Positions 15,880-51,605 of a stretch of 64,000 nt of DNA are shown piece after piece. The position numbers and the translations under genes are program-made. The stretch comes from an uncultured virus (IMG/VR IMGVR_UViG_3300035670_000133) (taxonomy: Duplodnaviria; Heunggongvirae; Uroviricota; Caudoviricetes), in the IMG/VR virus record IMGVR_UViG_3300035670_000133, one strand, 5' to 3'. The notes below the pieces were generated by a model, which was not told where the DNA came from, searched no databases, and worked only from the letters and a program-made list of their open reading frames with translations. Every line of letters begins with the position of its first letter. Positions within the stretch are counted from its first letter, which is position 1.

Positions 15880-15936
15880 AAGCCCCAGCGAGCTACGAAC
15901 TCCTGAGGCCGATCAACCTGCGTTCCCAGGCCGATG
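15880..15936 (+). promoter_or_regulatory. Conserved two-hairpin leader of HNH gene (copy 1)
   Basis: Near-identical to 20509-20566, with a compensatory base change. Confidence 0.65.
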
Positions 15937-16572
15937 CCTAAGCCTATCGCACTGCCGCCGCTTGAGCGGTTAAATGAGCTGTTTGAAGTAGTCCCGATTG
16001 CCGAGTCTCAATTTGGAATTCAATCAGGATTGATGTGCAGGATAGCCCAAGGAAACCAGAAAGCAGGTAATGTTGCGGGAACACCCAGAAGGGATCGTAC
16101 GGGCAGGATCGACTGGATAGTAAGTGTTGACTCTCGGCGATATTTGGTATCGAGAATCATTTACTTTATGATAAGTGGCTTAGATCCCGGTAAATTCGAG
16201 ATCGACCATAAGGACTGTAATCCTTTAAATAACAATTTAGAGAACTTAAGACTTGGGCACAAATCGTTGCAGAAACATAATCGACCAAGACAGGCAAACA
16301 ACACCAGCGGCGCGGTGGGAGTGAGCAGGGTCAAAGGTCGTAACAAGTGGCGGGCTTATCTCACGTTCGAAACTAAACCAACCCATTTAGGCCACTTCAC
16401 CTGCAAAATCGAAGCCGCCAAAGCATACAACGACAAGGTTATAAGTCAAAACCTACACAAAATTGGTAAACCTCTTAATGATATAGAAACGCTCAGTTGT
16501 GATTGTGATAAGTGCAATGATGAGATTAACCTAAGTGGCTGTGAATTTCATCAAAGACTTCACGGCCTTTAG
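15934..16572 (+). CDS. HNH-AP2 homing endonuclease
   Basis: IDHKDCNPLNNNLENLR plus AP2-like NTSGAVGV...KWRA...LGHF...EAAKAYN; antisense to its neighbours. Confidence 0.88.
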   Translation: MPKPIALPPLERLNELFEVVPIAESQFGIQSGLMCRIAQGNQKAGNVAGTPRRDRTGRIDWIVSVDSRRYLVSRIIYFMISGLDPGKFEIDHKDCNPLNNNLENLRLGHKSLQKHNRPRQANNTSGAVGVSRVKGRNKWRAYLTFETKPTHLGHFTCKIEAAKAYNDKVISQNLHKIGKPLNDIETLSCDCDKCNDEINLSGCEFHQRLHGL

Positions 16573-20508: not shown

Positions 20509-20566
20509 AAGCCCCGGCGAGCTGCGAACTCCCGAGGCGTGATCAACCTGTAGGAGCAGGCCGATG
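20509..20566 (+). promoter_or_regulatory. Conserved two-hairpin leader of HNH gene (copy 2)
   Basis: Near-identical to 15880-15936. Confidence 0.65.
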
Positions 20567-21163
20567 GCTAAGACTGTAGCACTGCCTCCGCTTGAGCGGT
20601 TGCGCGAGTTGTTGGAAGTTGTACCGATCGCAGAGTCTCAATATGGGGTCCAATCGGGGTTGGTGTGGCGGATAAAAAGAAGCTATAAAGCCACGGCGGG
20701 AAGCGTGGCTGGGTGTTTGAAACGACATAATTTAACTGGGGGTAGATGTGATTGGGTTGTATCTATTGATAATCGTAGGTATCTTGTGTCTAGGATAGTT
20801 TACTACATGGTAAATGAGGTCGATCCAGCTTATTCGGAAGTTGATCATAAGGATCGAAACACTTTAAATAACAATAGAGAAAATCTACGGTTAGCGGATC
20901 GTTCACTACAAGGACATAACATGATTAAACACACAAAAGCCAGTAGCAACGCTTTGGGGGTCGATCTCCACCGTAAAAGCAATCTTTGGAGAGCGCGTAT
21001 CAGGAATAAAGGATCGTCTGAGAGTCTTGGCTACTTTATCTGCAAGATTGAAGCGGCCCGCGTTTGGAATAACAAAGTCATTGAACTTGGCTTAGATAAG
21101 CTTGGGAAGCCCCTAAATGATCTAGAGGCTATCGAGTGCGACTGCTGTAAGTGTCAGCGATGA
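20564..21163 (+). CDS. HNH-AP2 homing endonuclease
   Basis: VDHKDRNTLNNNRENLR plus AP2-like domain; close paralog of 15934-16572. Confidence 0.88.
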   Translation: MAKTVALPPLERLRELLEVVPIAESQYGVQSGLVWRIKRSYKATAGSVAGCLKRHNLTGGRCDWVVSIDNRRYLVSRIVYYMVNEVDPAYSEVDHKDRNTLNNNRENLRLADRSLQGHNMIKHTKASSNALGVDLHRKSNLWRARIRNKGSSESLGYFICKIEAARVWNNKVIELGLDKLGKPLNDLEAIECDCCKCQR

Positions 21164-24228: not shown

Positions 24229-25924
24229 GATGATGATGATTGTGTTGGTGTTGGTTACAGATAGAGACTTACGATACGTTCGTTGTAAGCGTCACGATGT
24301 TTATCATCATCGTACCAGTCGTCTAGTTCTTTCGTAGATTGTTCATGCTCTAGCTGTCTGCTAAGTGCGTCACACTTGTCAGCAAGTGCCTCACACTGAT
24401 CATAGAGTTTGTGTACACGATCCCAGTCTTTAGCCTGTCGAGCATTAACAATCAGCTGATCAATCAGCTTGATCTGTTCATTCAGTGCGGTGATAGTTTC
24501 AGTCATGATCACTTAAACATTGCGTTCCAAAGTGCGTTAACGATGTGATCACGCACATCCTCACGCTGTGTGTCACGAACAGTCAGCCGGCAAGTTTCAG
24601 CAAACTGATTGTTCTTGCTGTGCAAAACTACAACCTGCGTGGGTGATAGCTTCATCACGCAAGTCTCAAACGAAAGGCGTTGTGATTCAGTCATGATCAG
24701 ATTGCGATGGTGATGGATAGTTTCAGGCGTAAGTAAGAAGCTTGCCGATAGGCATCTTTGAGAAGGCAGACTTAGCTTCCATAACTGTCAGGAACTCACC
24801 TACAGTTTCATTGACAATCTTGCTGCCGACAGATCTGTACACCGTGAGTTTGTACTTATCATCGAGGTTGACATTCTTAGCAATGTAACCGAGAGGGATT
24901 GTGCCAACCTTGATAGAGAGCCAGTAGATAGAAGGCACGTCATTCCAGAGTTCGAAGCTAATCATGATGATGTGAATGTGATGGGATTGTGTTAGTTAAG
25001 ATCAGCAGTAGTAACGGCCAACGATGACATCATCGCCGCACAGTTTGACTAAAGTTCCGCTGAAATAGGAGTCGCTGCTGATACCGTGCCAACCCTTAAA
25101 CATACCGTCAGGGTTAGTGTTAGTCAGGAACTCGTTGAGATTGTAATAACGATTGCCATACTTAAAGAATGAACAATTAGAGTCAAACTCATCGTCGCTC
25201 ATCCAATCAAACTGCTTGCGGAGTTTGATACGCTCAGCGCCAGAAAACTCGCAAGTGAACAACAGCCGGCGTGGCTGATTGTTGGTCTTAATTGTCACTT
25301 CAGTCATACGTTGTACCTGGAATGAACATGGTGAGGGTAGAGGCCCTCAGTGTGCATTGTACTGCACAGGGAGAGCGTCACACTCAGAGAGTGAAACGAA
25401 GCTTTGCACCATGATCAAACGTGATCACGAATACAAACTAACCACACCCAAATAGAGACCAGGTACGAAATACCTGGCCCCTACAGGATGCAATTCTGGG
25501 AAACTGACCCCAAATTAAAGTCAGTTAGGGTGCGCATATAACGCACAAAAGCTATTAAATTGTGCCGAACTGTAAGATTCTCAGCCCGGCTGCAGGATGA
25601 TGACCGTAGGAGAGACTCCTAAGGCTCTGTCCAGCGTACCTGTGTGAGGGACAGATACTCTGGACAGGACATTCTGCAGACCCACGCATGGCGAGAGCGT
25701 GGCAAGTAACGCCGCTAAGTGATACAGCACGACTGTATCTTTCCTGTTCTCAAGGAAGTTAAATAGTTTTCGGCACCGTGCACACTTAGCCAGTCGGGTT
25801 GCAACTGTATTGTGCTCGGGGGATCGCTCGCGCCCCTAGTTCCATCTCATGACGGTGCCTGCTATACAGAATGAAGTTAACTGTGCCTTAGGCTTTCCGT
25901 GCAAACTATCTCAGCACAGTTAAC

Positions 25925-25943
25925 TATTCAGTTTTCAAGGTTC
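25925..25943 (-). promoter_or_regulatory. boxA-like antitermination motif 2
   Basis: GAACCTTGAAAACTGAATA; the first 12 nt match the cyanobacterial rrn boxA GAACCTTGAAAA. Confidence 0.7.
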
Positions 25944-26075
25944 CTCCCCCTGATACCTCACACCTAGCCTGCCCGTTTCCGGCCCATCACCGACCCCTTG
26001 CGCCCCTACGTTTCGGCACACTGTGCCTACCATCAGAGCGAGGTCTGGCTGTGACACGTTATGCCACAGACTAGG

Positions 26076-26094
26076 TATTCAGTTATCAAGGTGC
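26076..26094 (-). promoter_or_regulatory. boxA-like antitermination motif 1
   Basis: GCACCTTGATAACTGAATA, 17/19 identical to motif 2, preceded by a GGCC-ATCAC-GGCC hairpin. Confidence 0.7.
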
Positions 26095-26116
26095 GGGCCG
26101 TGATGGCCATGCCCAG

Positions 26117-26145
26117 ATCCTACAGCATGGTGCGCAGCTTGTCGG
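26117..26145 (-). promoter_or_regulatory. Putative early promoter
   Basis: CCGACA-N17-TAGGAT just upstream of the hairpin-boxA. Confidence 0.5.
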
Positions 26146-26695
26146 GATGGTGTGAAACAAAGCGAAACAATCGGCCGGGATCACATAGGATCGCAGGGGC
26201 GCGTTGCTTCAGTCTCACACCGTAACCCTGGTGGGCTGGCGTGGTGGCTGCAGGTTGTCCAGGTTCCGCGTCCGGGGCTGAGCCCCATCGGCTTGTGCCA
26301 ATGGTAAGGGCAAGACGGGCCGATGCGATACCGACCTTGTGCCGCTATGTCGACCGTCACACTAGGTGCGCTCAGTGAGCACTGCGCGAACAGGAGAGGA
26401 AACGCGCGACGCGTGCGCGAGAGGGTAGCACACGGCCGGCAGTTAGTATAAAGAATAAAGAACTACCCCCTGATGACCGTATAAACAATTAAACAACACT
26501 AAGTATAAATAATAAACAATACAATTAATTATACAAACCGTGTGCCGCTATGTAACAAATAGTGGGCGCAATCTGCCCGCAACCCGGCCTTTTTTTTATA
26601 TATACGCTTTACGCGACGACGCGGGCGATACCCTTTTCATAATCTTGGGGGGAAACTGACTTCAAAAGGTTCAGTGCCAGTATACTAGCAGCGGC

Positions 26696-26768
26696 GGGGG
26701 TTTAGCTTTCTGGCGAAAGCAGCGTCCTCATAAGACGCGGAAGGTGGGTTCGATCCCCACAACCCCTA
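26696..26768 (+). tRNA. tRNA with CAT anticodon (elongator Met or Ile2)
   Basis: Cloverleaf: GGGGGTT/AACCCCT, GCGTC-CTCATAA-GACGC, GTGGG-TTCGATC-CCCAC. No initiator GGG/CCC stem and no CCA. Confidence 0.9.
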
Positions 26769-26849
26769 TTGAAAAAAAATTTTCGCCGCGTGGTTGTCGT
26801 ATAAAACCTTTTTCCGCACTTAAGCTTGTGTATACGTTCGTGCAGTCGA

Positions 26850-27167
26850 ATGCTTTCCCCGAGTGTGCGGCAAAAAGTCGAATTTATCTGCCAAAGAATC
26901 GCTAAAGGAGAGGAAGTTCAGTTCAAAGAGATGGAATGGGTCCAAAAATGGGCCAAATCGAACCATTCTGTCGACGCTATGCTCAGAAAAGCACGTCGTG
27001 AAGCCATAAGTGGTGGTTTTGAGGAGGGAAGTCTCGACGACTTCATGCAAAAAATGGATTTAGGGGACCCTGACCCGGCGAATCACCTGCAAGGGGCACA
27101 AGATCCGCTCACTTTGGCGGAGTGGTTTACGGAAAAACGAAAATGGTTTCGAGGAACTGCTGACTAA
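26850..27167 (+). CDS. Cyanophage-type hypothetical protein
   Basis: MLS...IC.RIA.GEEV...ARR...LDDF...LGDPDP; start at ATG 26850. Confidence 0.7.
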   Translation: MLSPSVRQKVEFICQRIAKGEEVQFKEMEWVQKWAKSNHSVDAMLRKARREAISGGFEEGSLDDFMQKMDLGDPDPANHLQGAQDPLTLAEWFTEKRKWFRGTAD

Positions 27168-27740: not shown

Positions 27741-27815
27741 TCGTGAGTAGTTCAAAAGGTAAGAACGCTAGGCAGACAGCCTAGAGACGGGAGGTTCGAT
27801 GCCTCCCCTCGCGAT
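27741..27815 (+). tRNA. Atypical tRNA-like gene, anticodon GAC (Val)
   Basis: D arm GTTC/GAAC, anticodon arm CTAGG-CAGACAG-CCTAG, T arm with TTCGATG; A at position 33 and an extra T-stem pair. Confidence 0.65.
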
Positions 27816-49081: not shown

Positions 49082-49165
49082 ACCTCTAAGAGTGCGACAA
49101 CTTGTTGTCTCGTAGGGCTTTTAAAGATTTAAGATTACTCTTGTAGTTTCTTCTGGAAATTATCG

Positions 49166-51605
49166 ATGTTCATCGATAGCTGAGTGCTCAGTTTGTCGCC
49201 TAGTCAGGTAACTGGCTAGTGATAACCGGGTGAATTCAGGGAAGCCCTTAGGCAACTCTTCTGAAACAATCGGCATAGCCGAGAACCTTGAAAATTAGAT
49301 CTTTATTTGGAGTAGGCATCCTCCGATAAAGAAGCCTGAGAGTACCTCCGTCTCAGAAGCGGGGGTATGGGTAATCCTGAGCGAAGCCAATCAAGCGTGA
49401 TTGGAACGTGCAGAGACTAGGTGGTGCAACACGATCTTGTTGCGTAATACACCATTAGCGCCCGGCATCCTGTTTTACAGGATGAAGAGATAGTCCACCT
49501 CCGTGGGAAACTGCGGGTTTAGGTGAATGATTTTCCGAAGATTCTTGGTGCCGAGCTGTACCGTCCCCACCCCGCATACATCGTTGAGATGGCTGCGGAG
49601 CCTGTTGTAGTCCATGACTTCAGCAAGCAACCAGGTCAGACAGTGCAGCTGGATCGTTATCGTTTCTTCGGTAACCCCGGCTCCAAAGAATCTCGCGAGC
49701 GTACTGCTGAGCAGACCATTGGTACTGCTAACAGCCGCAATATCGTGAAGGATAAGGTGCTCGTGACGCTTCGCGAGTACACCGGTCCCGCTGACCCGAG
49801 TGATCCCACTCAGCCCAGCACCTTCAAAATTGCTAAACCCTTGGCCCTCGTTTAAGAAATTAAGCGATGTGCACTCCGTGAATTGCTGGAATCCCTCCTG
49901 ACGTTTTAAACTGTCCGGGAAATCAGCAGCCAAGCTTGATGAGTAATCATCTTGAAGGTTCAACGACTAGGGTTGACTGTACGCTTGATCTTCTGCCTGT
50001 CGAAGATAGAGCTTTCTTAAAAGCTTGTATTTTTGGCGACGGTTGGTTAGGTCTCCAACGCAAAAAATTCGTACACCTACGAATAGGTCATTCTGCAAAA
50101 CAGTATGACTGGCTTGCCTTTAAGGCAAAGGAGATTAACCGAATCCTAGGTAAAGATAGAAAAGTTTTAGGTCCTTACTTGCAATCAGACGGCGTAAGTA
50201 AAGATAAGGAACATGAGTCTTATCTTTACTGCGTTGATGACCATGCTTTGTTCCGACCTTGGTTTTCTCGATGGTACGAGGTACCTCCTGAGGGTAAGGT
50301 GATTAAACACATTACCCACGATTTTTTATCTGACCTAGGGCTACGTGAGTTAGCTGTTCTATGGTGTGATGATGGCTCTGTTAGTTCTTCTAATAGAACC
50401 AAGTTACATAAATTAAAGGACGGTACTCTACGAAAATATCCGTACGTAGAAGCTCAAGGGCAAATTGCTCTTTGTTCTTTTAGTCTTGATGAGTACAGAC
50501 TTGTTCAAGACTGGTTATATTCCTTAACTGGAATTAAATGGCGTTACACGCCTCGGATAAGAGACAAAAGGGCAACATTAAGCATCGGGAAACGGAAACT
50601 ACGTGAGTTTTTACCTTTAATAGCTCCGTATGTACCTTCCTGCATGTCGTACAAAGTCGATCTTTCCCACTGCCGATTAAGGTAAAGGAAAGGACCCCAC
50701 GAGCGCGGAGCACCCAAACAGATAACGCTGTGGGTGATGATATAGTCTGAACTTACGGGATGGTAAACCGTAAGAACTAGAGGATAAAGAGCCTCTAGGA
50801 TAACAATTTGAGGGAAACACTGATTACCGCCCAGCGCCTGCTGCTGGACACCGGTAACCTCACCACCTTCCACCAATCGATCGGCAGCCTGACTCTGCTC
50901 GACGACTATCGTCGTTGGCGCGACCGGGTGTTCATCAACGAACTCCTGAAGGCTGTTTCCAAGGGTCAATCCTCTGATACCCAAGGCGGTTACTACTTCC
51001 CTGGTGACCTGGCCACTGGTGCTCTGAGCTACACCAACGCCGAGCAAGCTAAGTTCGACGTTAAGGATGACCTGCTGCGCGTGGTGAAGAGCCTGCGTAA
51101 GCGGAACACTCCCACCTTCCAGGACGGTTTTTATCGCTGCGTTTGCGATCCGACCTTCCTGATGCACCTGCGTCAGAACAGCGACTTCCGTGAAGTTGCT
51201 CGTTATCCTGGCAACGGGCAGATCAACCCCCTCATGTCCGGAATGCAGCCCAACGCTGCTCTGTACATGGGTCAAGGCTTCGGTCAGGCTACCTTCGTGG
51301 CCGGCGAGCCGATCATGCCCACCGGCTTTGTGTTTGAAGGCGTGCGCTTCTTCGAAAGCACCAACATGCCTACTCAAACTCAAAACGCGACCATCGCATC
51401 TTCGACCGCTGCTTACAACGCAGCTGTTGGTATCTTCTTTGGTCCTCAGGCCGTTGGTGTTGGCATCGGTGGCAACAATGCCCAGGTGCTCCTCAACAAC
51501 AACGACGACTTCAGCCGTTTTATCATGATGATTTGGAGCCTGTACGCAGGTTTCGAACTTCTGAACGCTGACTTCGTCACCGTTGGTTACTCTTTCGACG
51601 CTTGA
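49166..51605 (+). CDS. Major capsid protein, spliced: join(49166..49177,49526..49834,50811..51605), 371 aa
   Basis: Joined exons read MFID|NDFPKILGAEL...TFKIA|RETLITAQ... in frame; capsid-like GFVFEGVRFFESTN and FFGPQAVG segments. Confidence 0.88.
49178..49525 (+). mobile_element. Group I intron 1 (348 nt, no ORF)
   Basis: Exon U then terminal G; P1 with U.G wobble; P3 CCGGGTG/CGCCCGG; P7 GACTA (49415)/TAGTC (49491); extra helix between P7 and P3 (IA-like). Confidence 0.92.
49835..50810 (+). mobile_element. Group I intron 2 (976 nt) carrying a homing endonuclease
   Basis: P1 GCT|AA with TTGGC; P10 CCCT with exon AGGG; AATTGCTGGAA / AATCAGCAG core; P7 GACTA (49965)/TAGTC (50743); terminal G. 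Confidence 0.93.
49939..50685 (+). CDS. LAGLIDADG homing endonuclease (double motif)
   Basis: FLKACIFGDGWL and LAVLWCDDGSV motifs inside intron 2. Confidence 0.9.
   Translation: MSNHLEGSTTRVDCTLDLLPVEDRAFLKACIFGDGWLGLQRKKFVHLRIGHSAKQYDWLAFKAKEINRILGKDRKVLGPYLQSDGVSKDKEHESYLYCVDDHALFRPWFSRWYEVPPEGKVIKHITHDFLSDLGLRELAVLWCDDGSVSSSNRTKLHKLKDGTLRKYPYVEAQGQIALCSFSLDEYRLVQDWLYSLTGIKWRYTPRIRDKRATLSIGKRKLREFLPLIAPYVPSCMSYKVDLSHCRLR

Follow-up and report, generated by a model that had tools for sequence, protein, structure and literature searches.

A boxA-bearing, densely folded leader upstream of the early genes of an uncultured cyanophage: a candidate rrn- or nut-like antitermination region

The gap between the two divergent gene arms of an uncultured virus (IMG/VR record IMGVR_UViG_3300035670_000133) contains, at 25308-26145 on the minus strand, a non-coding region that folds as minus-strand RNA, retains its pairing through covariation among relatives and carries the boxA sequence of cyanobacterial ribosomal RNA (rrn) operons. 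Coordinates refer to the window, i.e., the whole stretch of 64,000 nucleotides (nt) that was analysed. The boxA is coupled to a compact three-way-junction RNA (3WJ), and this coupling recurs across two phage lineages. On balance, the region is probably an untranslated rrn- or nut-like leader of the leftward early/replication operon, which would recruit the host Nus machinery.

Open reading frames (ORFs) and gene annotation describe the window as a phage genome whose two arms diverge. On the minus strand (1-25307) lie genes for DNA polymerase, exonuclease, an ATPase, and dCTP deaminase together with many small ORFs; the plus-strand arm begins with tRNA-Met (26696-26768), followed by terminase, portal, and tail genes. 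The gap between them (25308-26695) spans 1388 nt and has no ORF of at least 60 amino acids (aa), the longest being of 59 aa; within 25308-26145, each frame of both strands contains 9-17 stop codons. The first leftward gene starts with the ATG at 25307-25305 and is a 101-aa ORF (25002-25307) with homologs at 62-78% identity. The leader heads the leftward replication/early arm, as the first-pass annotation had proposed.

Folding of this segment clearly exceeds that of shuffled sequence. The predicted energy of the minus strand of 25308-26145 (838 nt) is -337.7 kcal/mol, compared with -288.6 +/- 8.1 kcal/mol in 20 shuffles (z = -6.05); the plus strand scores z = -4.07, and two 838-nt coding controls from the same strand score -0.77 and -0.88. 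Perfect 8-bp complements are also in excess (18 observed, 5.8 +/- 3.0 in shuffles); as about six of them are expected by chance, a lone 8-mer carries no weight.

Homologs of the leader occur in two arrangements: Type I, comprising the window and 7 other distinct loci, and Type II, comprising 39 distinct sequences located downstream of a thyX gene. In the 5' half, the 8 aligned Type I sequences (alignment A4) pair in 92.4% of cells, and 36 of 83 pairs are changed on both sides; the structure was derived from the same alignment in which the pairs were counted. Shuffles yield 12.4 +/- 2.7 such pairs (0/500 reach 36), and slid controls at most 11. Only 9 of 106 pairs in the 3' half show double changes, the close relatives being too alike for a structure test. 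G.U pairs far outnumber A.C pairs (69:12 in the 5' half and 64:4 in the 3WJ), which identifies the minus strand as the one that folds. The proposal of a densely structured, conserved, non-coding minus-strand RNA thus holds, and all listed sequence features were located where they had been placed.

Two copies of an extended boxA stand out in the 5' half. The 17-nt sequence ACCTTGAWAACTGAATA occurs exactly twice in the 64 kb (26092-26076 and 25941-25925), whereas shuffles lead to an expectation of 0.03 (0/100 reach 2); a looser boxA-like pattern gives 5 matches in the window against 0.32 expected, one of which (site 0) had escaped the first-pass annotation. The elements concerned are as follows.

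26096-26108, minus strand: GGCC/GGCC hairpin, read in the sequence
26076-26094, minus strand: boxA1, CACCTTGATAACTGAATA, identical to boxA2 at 16 of 17 positions and preceded by the small GGCC hairpin
25925-25943, minus strand: boxA2, GGAACCTTGAAAACTGAATA, with the core GAACCTTGAAAA at 25942-25931
26254-26265, minus strand: boxA-like site 0, AACCTGGACAAC, from the pattern search

In a published account of the cyanobacterial 16S-23S internal transcribed spacer (ITS), GAACCTTGAAAA is the boxA and CTGCATA the conserved domain D4 (PMC8461337). The boxA2 core is identical to the quoted ITS boxA at 12 of 12 positions, and the 7 nt that follow it, CTGAATA, match D4 at 6 of 7 (PMC8461337). The assignment to the cyanobacterial rrn type is therefore sound, and the GGCC hairpin likewise stands. 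As for the claim of two rrn-type copies, both are present in the window, but only boxA2 is conserved family-wide: GAACCT(T/C)GA(A/C/T)AA is found at its position in 8/8 Type I sequences. Of the other 7 Type I loci, 6 have CACCTNGAMAAC or, in L392, its near-variant GAACCTAGACAAC where boxA1 would stand, and L398 has no boxA-like sequence there. Hairpins of the boxB type accompany these sites, GGCC before boxA1 and GGGGC-TCA-GCCCC before site 0; relatives have CGAGAGCC-type hairpins before boxA, and the small hairpins covary weakly (helices 1-2). A scan of viral sequences with the 17-nt boxA pattern was discarded as a source of homologs: its 117 loci gave one 31-nt blast match to the region, essentially chance.

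The element that most consistently follows boxA is a fold not catalogued before.

25765-25861, minus strand: 3WJ motif, 97 nt (covariance model R1, 68.8 bits, E = 2.5e-19)

It consists of an 8-bp helix P1 (25859-25852/25779-25772), a near-invariant 15-nt junction (CAYAAGAYGGAMYUA), a helix P3 capped by a GCGA tetraloop, and a two-part stem P4 with the loop CAACC. Model R1 was built from 37 Type II sequences, with the window and all Type I sequences excluded, and finds a single copy in the window (25861-25765), ruling out the idea that the upstream domain A1 is a diverged 3WJ copy. In the 37 sequences, pairing holds in 97.8% of cells, with 11 of 25 pairs changed on both sides (0/500 shuffles reach this; slid controls give at most 3). 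Among 64 distinct sequences, drawn from 89 metagenome matches and the window, the values rise to 98.7% and 16 of 25 pairs (240 cells; 0/500 shuffles) in an alignment biased toward the structure, the model having guided its fit. RNAalifold recovers the same helices independently from the 8 Type I sequences. It also proposes a hairpin 'P2' within the junction, which was rejected: it is broken in L398, whose compensatory changes favor an extended P1.

A pattern search retrieves the 3WJ from 59 viral and 97 metagenome loci. The cassette is present, unannotated, in the cultured T7-like podovirus S-CBP1, within the gap between thyX and the early genes; DSL-LC07 is a blastn match. None of 151 cyanobacterial genomes sampled across the phylum contains it according to R1, nor do two more, which as a sample is not proof of absence from the hosts. 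Rfam offers no name: at gathering thresholds the whole window yields two tRNAs and a group I intron; at E <= 10, the segment 24800-27200 yields tRNA 26696-26768 and a 15-bit miRNA chance match, with no family, GOLLD, ROOL, and EAR included, covering 25308-26145; and five related loci, S-CBP1 among them, yield nothing over the leader at E <= 1. The 3WJ is a well-supported candidate for a new RNA family, and the leader matches no Rfam family; the first-pass annotation had recognised no named class in it.

The coupling of boxA to this fold is tight. In 46 of 47 distinct sequences, the 3WJ has a boxA core (CCTNGANAA) at most 180 nt upstream; the two are therefore the constant unit of these leaders. 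The core ends 3-10 nt before P1 in 38 sequences; in all 8 of Type I, the intervening A2 hairpin widens this distance to 66-70 nt. In the 5' to 3' direction, Type I loci contain a promoter-like site, a small hairpin, the boxA1-position motif, domain A1, boxA2, the A2 hairpin, the 3WJ, a variable insert of 0-350 nt, the UCGUK hairpin, the B and C hairpins, the GATC hairpin, and the first gene. Type II loci begin with a promoter and a hairpin, continue with a boxA-like site and the 3WJ, and then have a GAGCCACA-loop hairpin and UAUAAAUUAGAUCAUGG before the Shine-Dalgarno sequence and small early genes; a good TTGACN-N16-19-TANNNT promoter with a hairpin precedes boxA in 30 of the 39.

The conservation of the 3WJ could also be read as that of a cis-acting sensor, either a riboswitch or a protein-binding attenuator, that tunes the early genes to a host metabolite or factor and lies near boxA incidentally. 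A near-invariant 15-nt junction, the GNRA loop, and an internal loop that we take to resemble a tetraloop receptor are features which such a sensor might have; the 3WJ is invariably followed by genes of its own strand, and near the leader's 3' end UGAGGG has two alternative partners, CUCUCCC and CCCUC. Yet in the window the 3WJ is located approximately 460 nt from the first start codon with no adjoining expression platform, no ligand or partner is indicated, and proximity to boxA in 46 of 47 sequences is too tight for coincidence. We regard the sensor as improbable.

The regulatory interactions that had been suggested for this part of the leader fare less well than the helices themselves. Of the two crossing 8-bp helices, both exist and do cross; one is P1, strongly supported by comparison, while the other (25714-25721/25783-25790) pairs in 87.5% of cells, shows one double change, has one pair broken in 4 of 7 sequences, and clashes with two covarying P4 pairs. 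It was accordingly rejected as an established pseudoknot, the comparative evidence pointing at most to a possible pseudoknot of 6 bp. A switch through the 8-mer at 25562-25569 finds no comparative support: the 8-mer exists, but it is a part of a GCACAA...UUGUGC hairpin, similar sequence occurs in close relatives that lack the 3WJ (TTTGGCAC in L126, L129, and L121, TGCGGCAC in L122, only GGCAC in L118, and GACAC in L119), and the other Type I loci have no counterpart of it.

The remaining modules of the leader also fold, to differing degrees of comparative support.

25962-26076, minus strand: domain A1 and its inner hairpins, closing stem ACCTAGTCTG/CAGGCTAGGT (minimum free energy, MFE, fold; RNAalifold on alignment A4)
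25875-25925, minus strand: A2, a long hairpin with a perfect 12-bp stem and a conserved apical GCACGG-AGCC (covariation)
25721-25739, minus strand: hairpin with a conserved UCGUK loop (5/5 pairs changed on both sides, 96.9% of cells paired)
25627-25667, minus strand: module B, a 17-bp hairpin with invariant CAGGUACGCUGG (85.3% paired)
25442-25526, minus strand: C1 hairpins, 25526-25502 and 25481-25459 (compensatory changes in L128 and the L118 group)
25403-25437, minus strand: 35-nt GATC-rich hairpin, UUUGUAUUCGUGAUCA-CGUU-UGAUCAUGGUGCAAA (near-invariant in 9/9 close relatives)
25308-25376, minus strand: 3' end of the leader, GCUCUCCC ... UGAGGG ... CCCUC, then the first-gene ATG (alignments A1 and A5)

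The closing stem of domain A1, between the two boxA copies as first described, joins ACCTAGTCTG (26076-26067) with CAGGCTAGGT (25971-25962); it is present in the MFE fold and covaries, with double changes in 4/4 aligned pairs. Within the domain, the inner helices are paired in 84-91% of cells. In A2 (helices 11-13), 8 of 19 pairs are changed on both sides; its 12-bp stem (25875-25886/25914-25925) is perfect in the window, and 6 of 13 pairs carry double changes in homologs. The hairpins at 25721-25739 (with all 5 pairs covarying) and 25627-25667 are likewise borne out, and those at 25502-25526 and 25459-25477 are predicted on the alignment of close relatives. The second C1 hairpin is followed by UCUCUAUUU, which gives it a terminator-like look, and a terminator-like match overlaps 25468-25442. 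The GATC-rich hairpin, with 15 predicted base pairs including three G.U, varies at one T/C position and at an R in the loop. At the 3' end, UGAGGG and most of 25308-25376 are invariant in all rows of alignments A1 and A5, with single substitutions in CUCUCCC and CCCUC, the two alternative predicted partners of UGAGGG.

Associated with the GATC-rich hairpin, the sequence GATCATGG recurs 91-118 nt past the 3WJ anchor in most Type II loci. A 21-codon ORF starting from it was rejected: its flanks are invariant at all codon positions, its middle is not conserved as protein, and L126 has a 2-nt insertion. Some Type II leaders (L379, L380, L400, L413, and L432) have gained an element of approximately 57 nt (GATAGAGCC...CTGATGAGGTATATTACG...) between GATCATGG and the first gene; it is also found in L435 (1501-1553). 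In the T4-like cyanophages S-RIM8 and S-RIM32, a sequence located 3 nt before tRNA-Ala is 85-89% identical to it.

The same region could act as DNA, i.e., as a replication origin, a packaging site, or an operator cluster, with hairpins formed in single-stranded DNA or palindromes bound by protein. Its divergent intergenic position between the replication and structural arms would suit such a role, as would the A-run and AT-rich repeats at 26440-26600, the invariant GATC cluster at 25403-25437, and the related contigs (L120-L122) that end inside the region. These three contigs start 200-440 nt upstream of the first early gene, within the leader, which could reflect an assembly break at a variable cassette or a genome end. 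The retention of G.U and avoidance of A.C, however, point to an RNA of a single strand; the helices are kept by compensatory changes as their sequence diverges, boxA is a signal read in RNA, and the 3WJ cassette also occurs in the early leader of T7-like phages. The G.U/A.C asymmetry makes action as DNA unlikely for the folded part. Such action is possible for the AT-rich part upstream of it; as an account of the whole region, it seems very improbable.

Relatives of the locus indicate that the leader is a mosaic. Flanking proteins led to 18 related viral loci, the closest of which (L118, L119, L126/L127, and L129) are 77-80% identical to the window over 25001-25680 and 60-72% identical over 26117-26793. 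In place of 25680-26117, they contain 441-499 nt of unrelated GC-rich sequence with no Rfam match. The swap of the block from boxA1 through A1, boxA2, and A2 to the 3WJ looks like a cassette exchange within a conserved frame; boxA1, boxA2, and the 3WJ are therefore replaceable parts, though site 0 is kept (5 of 7 rows of alignment A1, including relatives without the other three). Other loci (L123, L124, L151, L193, and more) have the middle section in common with the window. An nhmmer search with ten sub-segments finds modules present, absent, or re-ordered independently: module B, detected in 61 of 138 viral loci (L118-L255), precedes the 3WJ in Type II and follows it in Type I. The region is therefore a mosaic of exchangeable, independently folding modules, and the view of it as a single RNA class of approximately 800 nt has to be given up.

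Such independence accords with the main rival of the antitermination reading, according to which the whole folded part, or individual modules like the 3WJ, would be made or excised as stable non-coding RNA (a decoy or sponge, an anti-defence RNA, or a regulator), and boxA only ensures completion of the transcript, as for rRNA, tRNA, and CRISPR transcripts. The reversed order of B and 3WJ between the two types fits independent units, and the unpaired junction and loops of the 3WJ are conserved to a degree seen in riboswitches and ribozymes. The same boxA heads CRISPR arrays and tRNA operons in cyanobacterial genomes: among 120 loci with the extended motif in a scan of bacterial genomes, 17 have a CRISPR-type repeat within 120 nt downstream and 9 a tRNA gene within 200 nt, so the motif heads untranslated operons in cyanobacteria. 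In Type II, AU-rich UAUAAAUUAGAUCAUGG after the hairpin might serve as a processing site.

RNA libraries bear on the same question. Eight runs recorded as RNA have small word shares (0.05-0.13), and contigs of four RNA runs from four studies were placed on 24700-27000 with 88-99% likeness.

25758-26047: X1 contig, RNA library
25652-25799, 25925-26130, 26105-26231, and 26415-26520: X2 contigs, RNA library
25891-26102 and 26114-26145: X3 contigs, RNA library
25935-26097: X4 contig, RNA library

The segments 24700-25651 and 26548-27000 are free of contigs, which carries no weight. Short contigs from all four studies within 25652-26231 are what a stable RNA might leave; they are compatible with transcription without being proof of it, and contig ends cannot be read as RNA ends, nor contigs as a measure of abundance. 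Against a stable product, no strong terminator was found in the leader, where terminator-like matches are at chance level, and the cassette is always directed toward, and near, the first early gene. We consider stable non-coding RNA a possible, rather unlikely, explanation.

Transcription of the leader would begin at one or more of three promoter-like sites.

26528-26556, minus strand: Pa, GTTACA-N17-TATAAT, the best scorer of the promoter scan (10/12 consensus positions)
26325-26353, minus strand: Pb, TCGACA-N17-TATCGC, a putative site from sequence reading, repeat copy of Pa
26117-26145, minus strand: Pc, CCGACA-N17-TAGGAT, predicted start near 26110, conserved in relatives

The sites are spaced by 203 and 208 nt. 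Pa is poorly conserved in alignment A1, and a 23-nt direct repeat connects it with Pb, downstream of which lie the hairpins ATCGGC...GCCGAT and GGGGC-TCA-GCCCC. Pc, the site named by the first-pass annotation, is indeed present at 26145-26117 and is conserved in the window, L118, L119, L126, and L129 (alignment A1; nhmmer module P). The leader may start upstream of 26145, as a further unit of hairpin and boxA-like site lies at 26353-26254. Contig ends at 26102 and 26097, from two studies, are a weak hint of a start near Pc.

According to the antitermination reading, host RNA polymerase would transcribe the minus strand of the window through the leader to the first gene at 25307, starting from sigma-70-like promoters at 26145-26117 and perhaps at 26353-26325 and 26556-26528. 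Each promoter-like site is followed by a small hairpin and then by a boxA or boxA-like sequence, and the family-wide boxA (25942-25931) by the compact 3WJ (25861-25765) to which it is coupled. Nascent boxA RNA would be bound by host NusB-S10, and the adjacent folded RNA might hold or extend the complex on the polymerase, in the manner of boxB and boxC in rrn operons or of boxB and N in lambda. The polymerase, turned fast and termination-resistant, would then pass the hairpin-rich leader and enter the early genes. The remaining hairpin modules are exchangeable additions, maybe processing or protein-binding sites. Two HNH homing-endonuclease ORFs, at 15934-16572 and 20564-21163, lie on the plus strand within the minus-strand replication arm, which for this reason is unlikely to be transcribed as a single continuous unit of 25 kb.

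Several observations weigh against this account. The closest relatives by flanking sequence lack boxA1, boxA2, and the 3WJ (R1 confirms the absence of the last). The promoter-like sites are weak: neither Pb nor Pc reaches the threshold of the scan, whose total equals chance (2 found, 2.0 expected). Terminator-like matches in the leader are likewise near chance (5 found, 2.3 +/- 1.5 expected). In relatives, the motif at the boxA1 position can pair with CTAGGTG and may there form one side of a helix instead of serving as a factor site. Contigs from the RNA libraries could stem from DNA, and those of X2 and X3 also cover sequence upstream of 26110. Finally, cyanobacteria are not known to possess Rho, which leaves the target of antitermination in question.

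Known systems resemble parts of this arrangement. Antitermination in rrn leaders and spacers involves tandem promoters, a boxB hairpin, boxA, and boxC, which assemble a complex of NusA, NusB, NusE, and NusG. The phage leader has the identical 12-nt boxA with nearly D4 in the next 7 nt (PMC8461337), and small hairpins beside boxA. It also resembles rrn in having more than one boxA along a single putative transcript, untranslated and highly folded, and promoter-like sites in tandem. Unlike rrn, it heads protein genes, carries a 97-nt 3WJ where boxC stands, and has the order hairpin, boxA, large fold.

In the nutL and nutR sites of lambda, boxA is followed by a boxB hairpin bound by N; the order of boxA and structured RNA near the start of an early operon, one that would have to be transcribed past downstream signals, is identical in the phage leader. 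The lambda boxB is a 15-nt hairpin, whereas the phage leader has the 97-nt 3WJ and a boxA of the cyanobacterial rrn type. A lambda-type pair of short boxB hairpin with a GNRA-like loop and arginine-rich N-type protein encoded downstream is not matched: no N-like protein turned up, in analyses that included no search aimed at one.

A boxA in CRISPR leaders is reportedly described in Salmonella work. The cyanobacterial CRISPR and tRNA-operon leaders have the extended motif GAACCTTGAMAAY..RATA shortly downstream of the promoter region and before a long untranslated RNA, as in the phage; they differ in belonging to host genes and in having no 3WJ afterwards (none of the 151 genomes scanned with R1).

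In the early region of T7, the host promoters A1-A3 stand in tandem and a long leader with an RNase III site precedes gene 0.3. A long untranslated leader for host polymerase and tandem promoter-like sites approximately 205 nt apart are in common with the window, and the Type II cassette occupies the matching place in T7-like S-CBP1; there is no sequence likeness, however, and the phage of the window is not T7-like. The put RNA of HK022 and EAR of Bacillales are RNA-only or RNA-assisted processive antiterminators that work without boxA. They, too, are compact conserved leader folds upstream of a long operon, and the phage fold could similarly act on the elongating polymerase; it differs in having a boxA and in matching no such sequence or structure (no Rfam family over 25308-26145 at E <= 10).

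The source phage is an uncultured S-EIV1-like cyanophage. Its portal-like protein shares 42% identity with the counterpart in Synechococcus phage S-EIVl, the sole match among 50,697 phage records, and blastn of 25200-26700 against the same records gives zero matches. Pfam holds no family for four early ORFs, and PHROGs none for the first early ORF, the one of the four scanned. On the other side of the gap, module U1 (26560-26695), adjoining tRNA-Met, is strongly conserved, with an invariant A8 run (TATATAAAAAAAAGG) and TCTCGCC..CG.CG; it may hold rightward promoters or an origin. L118 and L119 have the AT-rich part beside U1 swapped for GT/GC-rich low-complexity sequence. A 17-nt direct repeat, GGGAAACTGACYYCAAA (88% identical), links the two ends of the gap: the copy at 25498-25514 is an arm of the leader hairpin 25502-25526, and that at 26650-26666 adjoins the tRNA-Met promoter region. 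The structural arm further contains a predicted tRNA-Val (27741-27815, plus strand; called by ARAGORN, absent from the Rfam gathering-threshold matches) and a group I intron (49121-49517, plus strand; Rfam RF00028, 81.5 bits). A boxA-like 12-mer (49284-49295) lies inside the intron, and a nearby ORF (49936-50685, plus strand) matches a LAGLIDADG homing-endonuclease PHROG.

Taken further, the arrangement would make boxA and the 3WJ a self-contained, horizontally moving cassette that reprograms host polymerase and is exchanged between S-EIV1-like phages and T7-like podoviruses, the 3WJ being a new polymerase- or Nus-binding RNA, a large 'boxB' without an N protein. This extension is offered tentatively and is rather doubtful as a whole. 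If true, the cassette would have no known precedent as an RNA-based antitermination device in organisms lacking Rho. Search listings (titles and the starts of abstracts) gave no description of boxA or Nus use, or of antitermination, in cyanophages. The system is tractable, with a mutable 12-nt signal, a well-defined 97-nt fold, and a cultured pair, S-CBP1 and Synechococcus CB0101, in which the phage has the cassette. How cyanophages gain control of host transcription during the first minutes of an infection is poorly understood; a host rRNA boxA and a conserved phage-only fold heading early operons suggest that these phages may borrow the machinery by which the host transcribes its rRNA.

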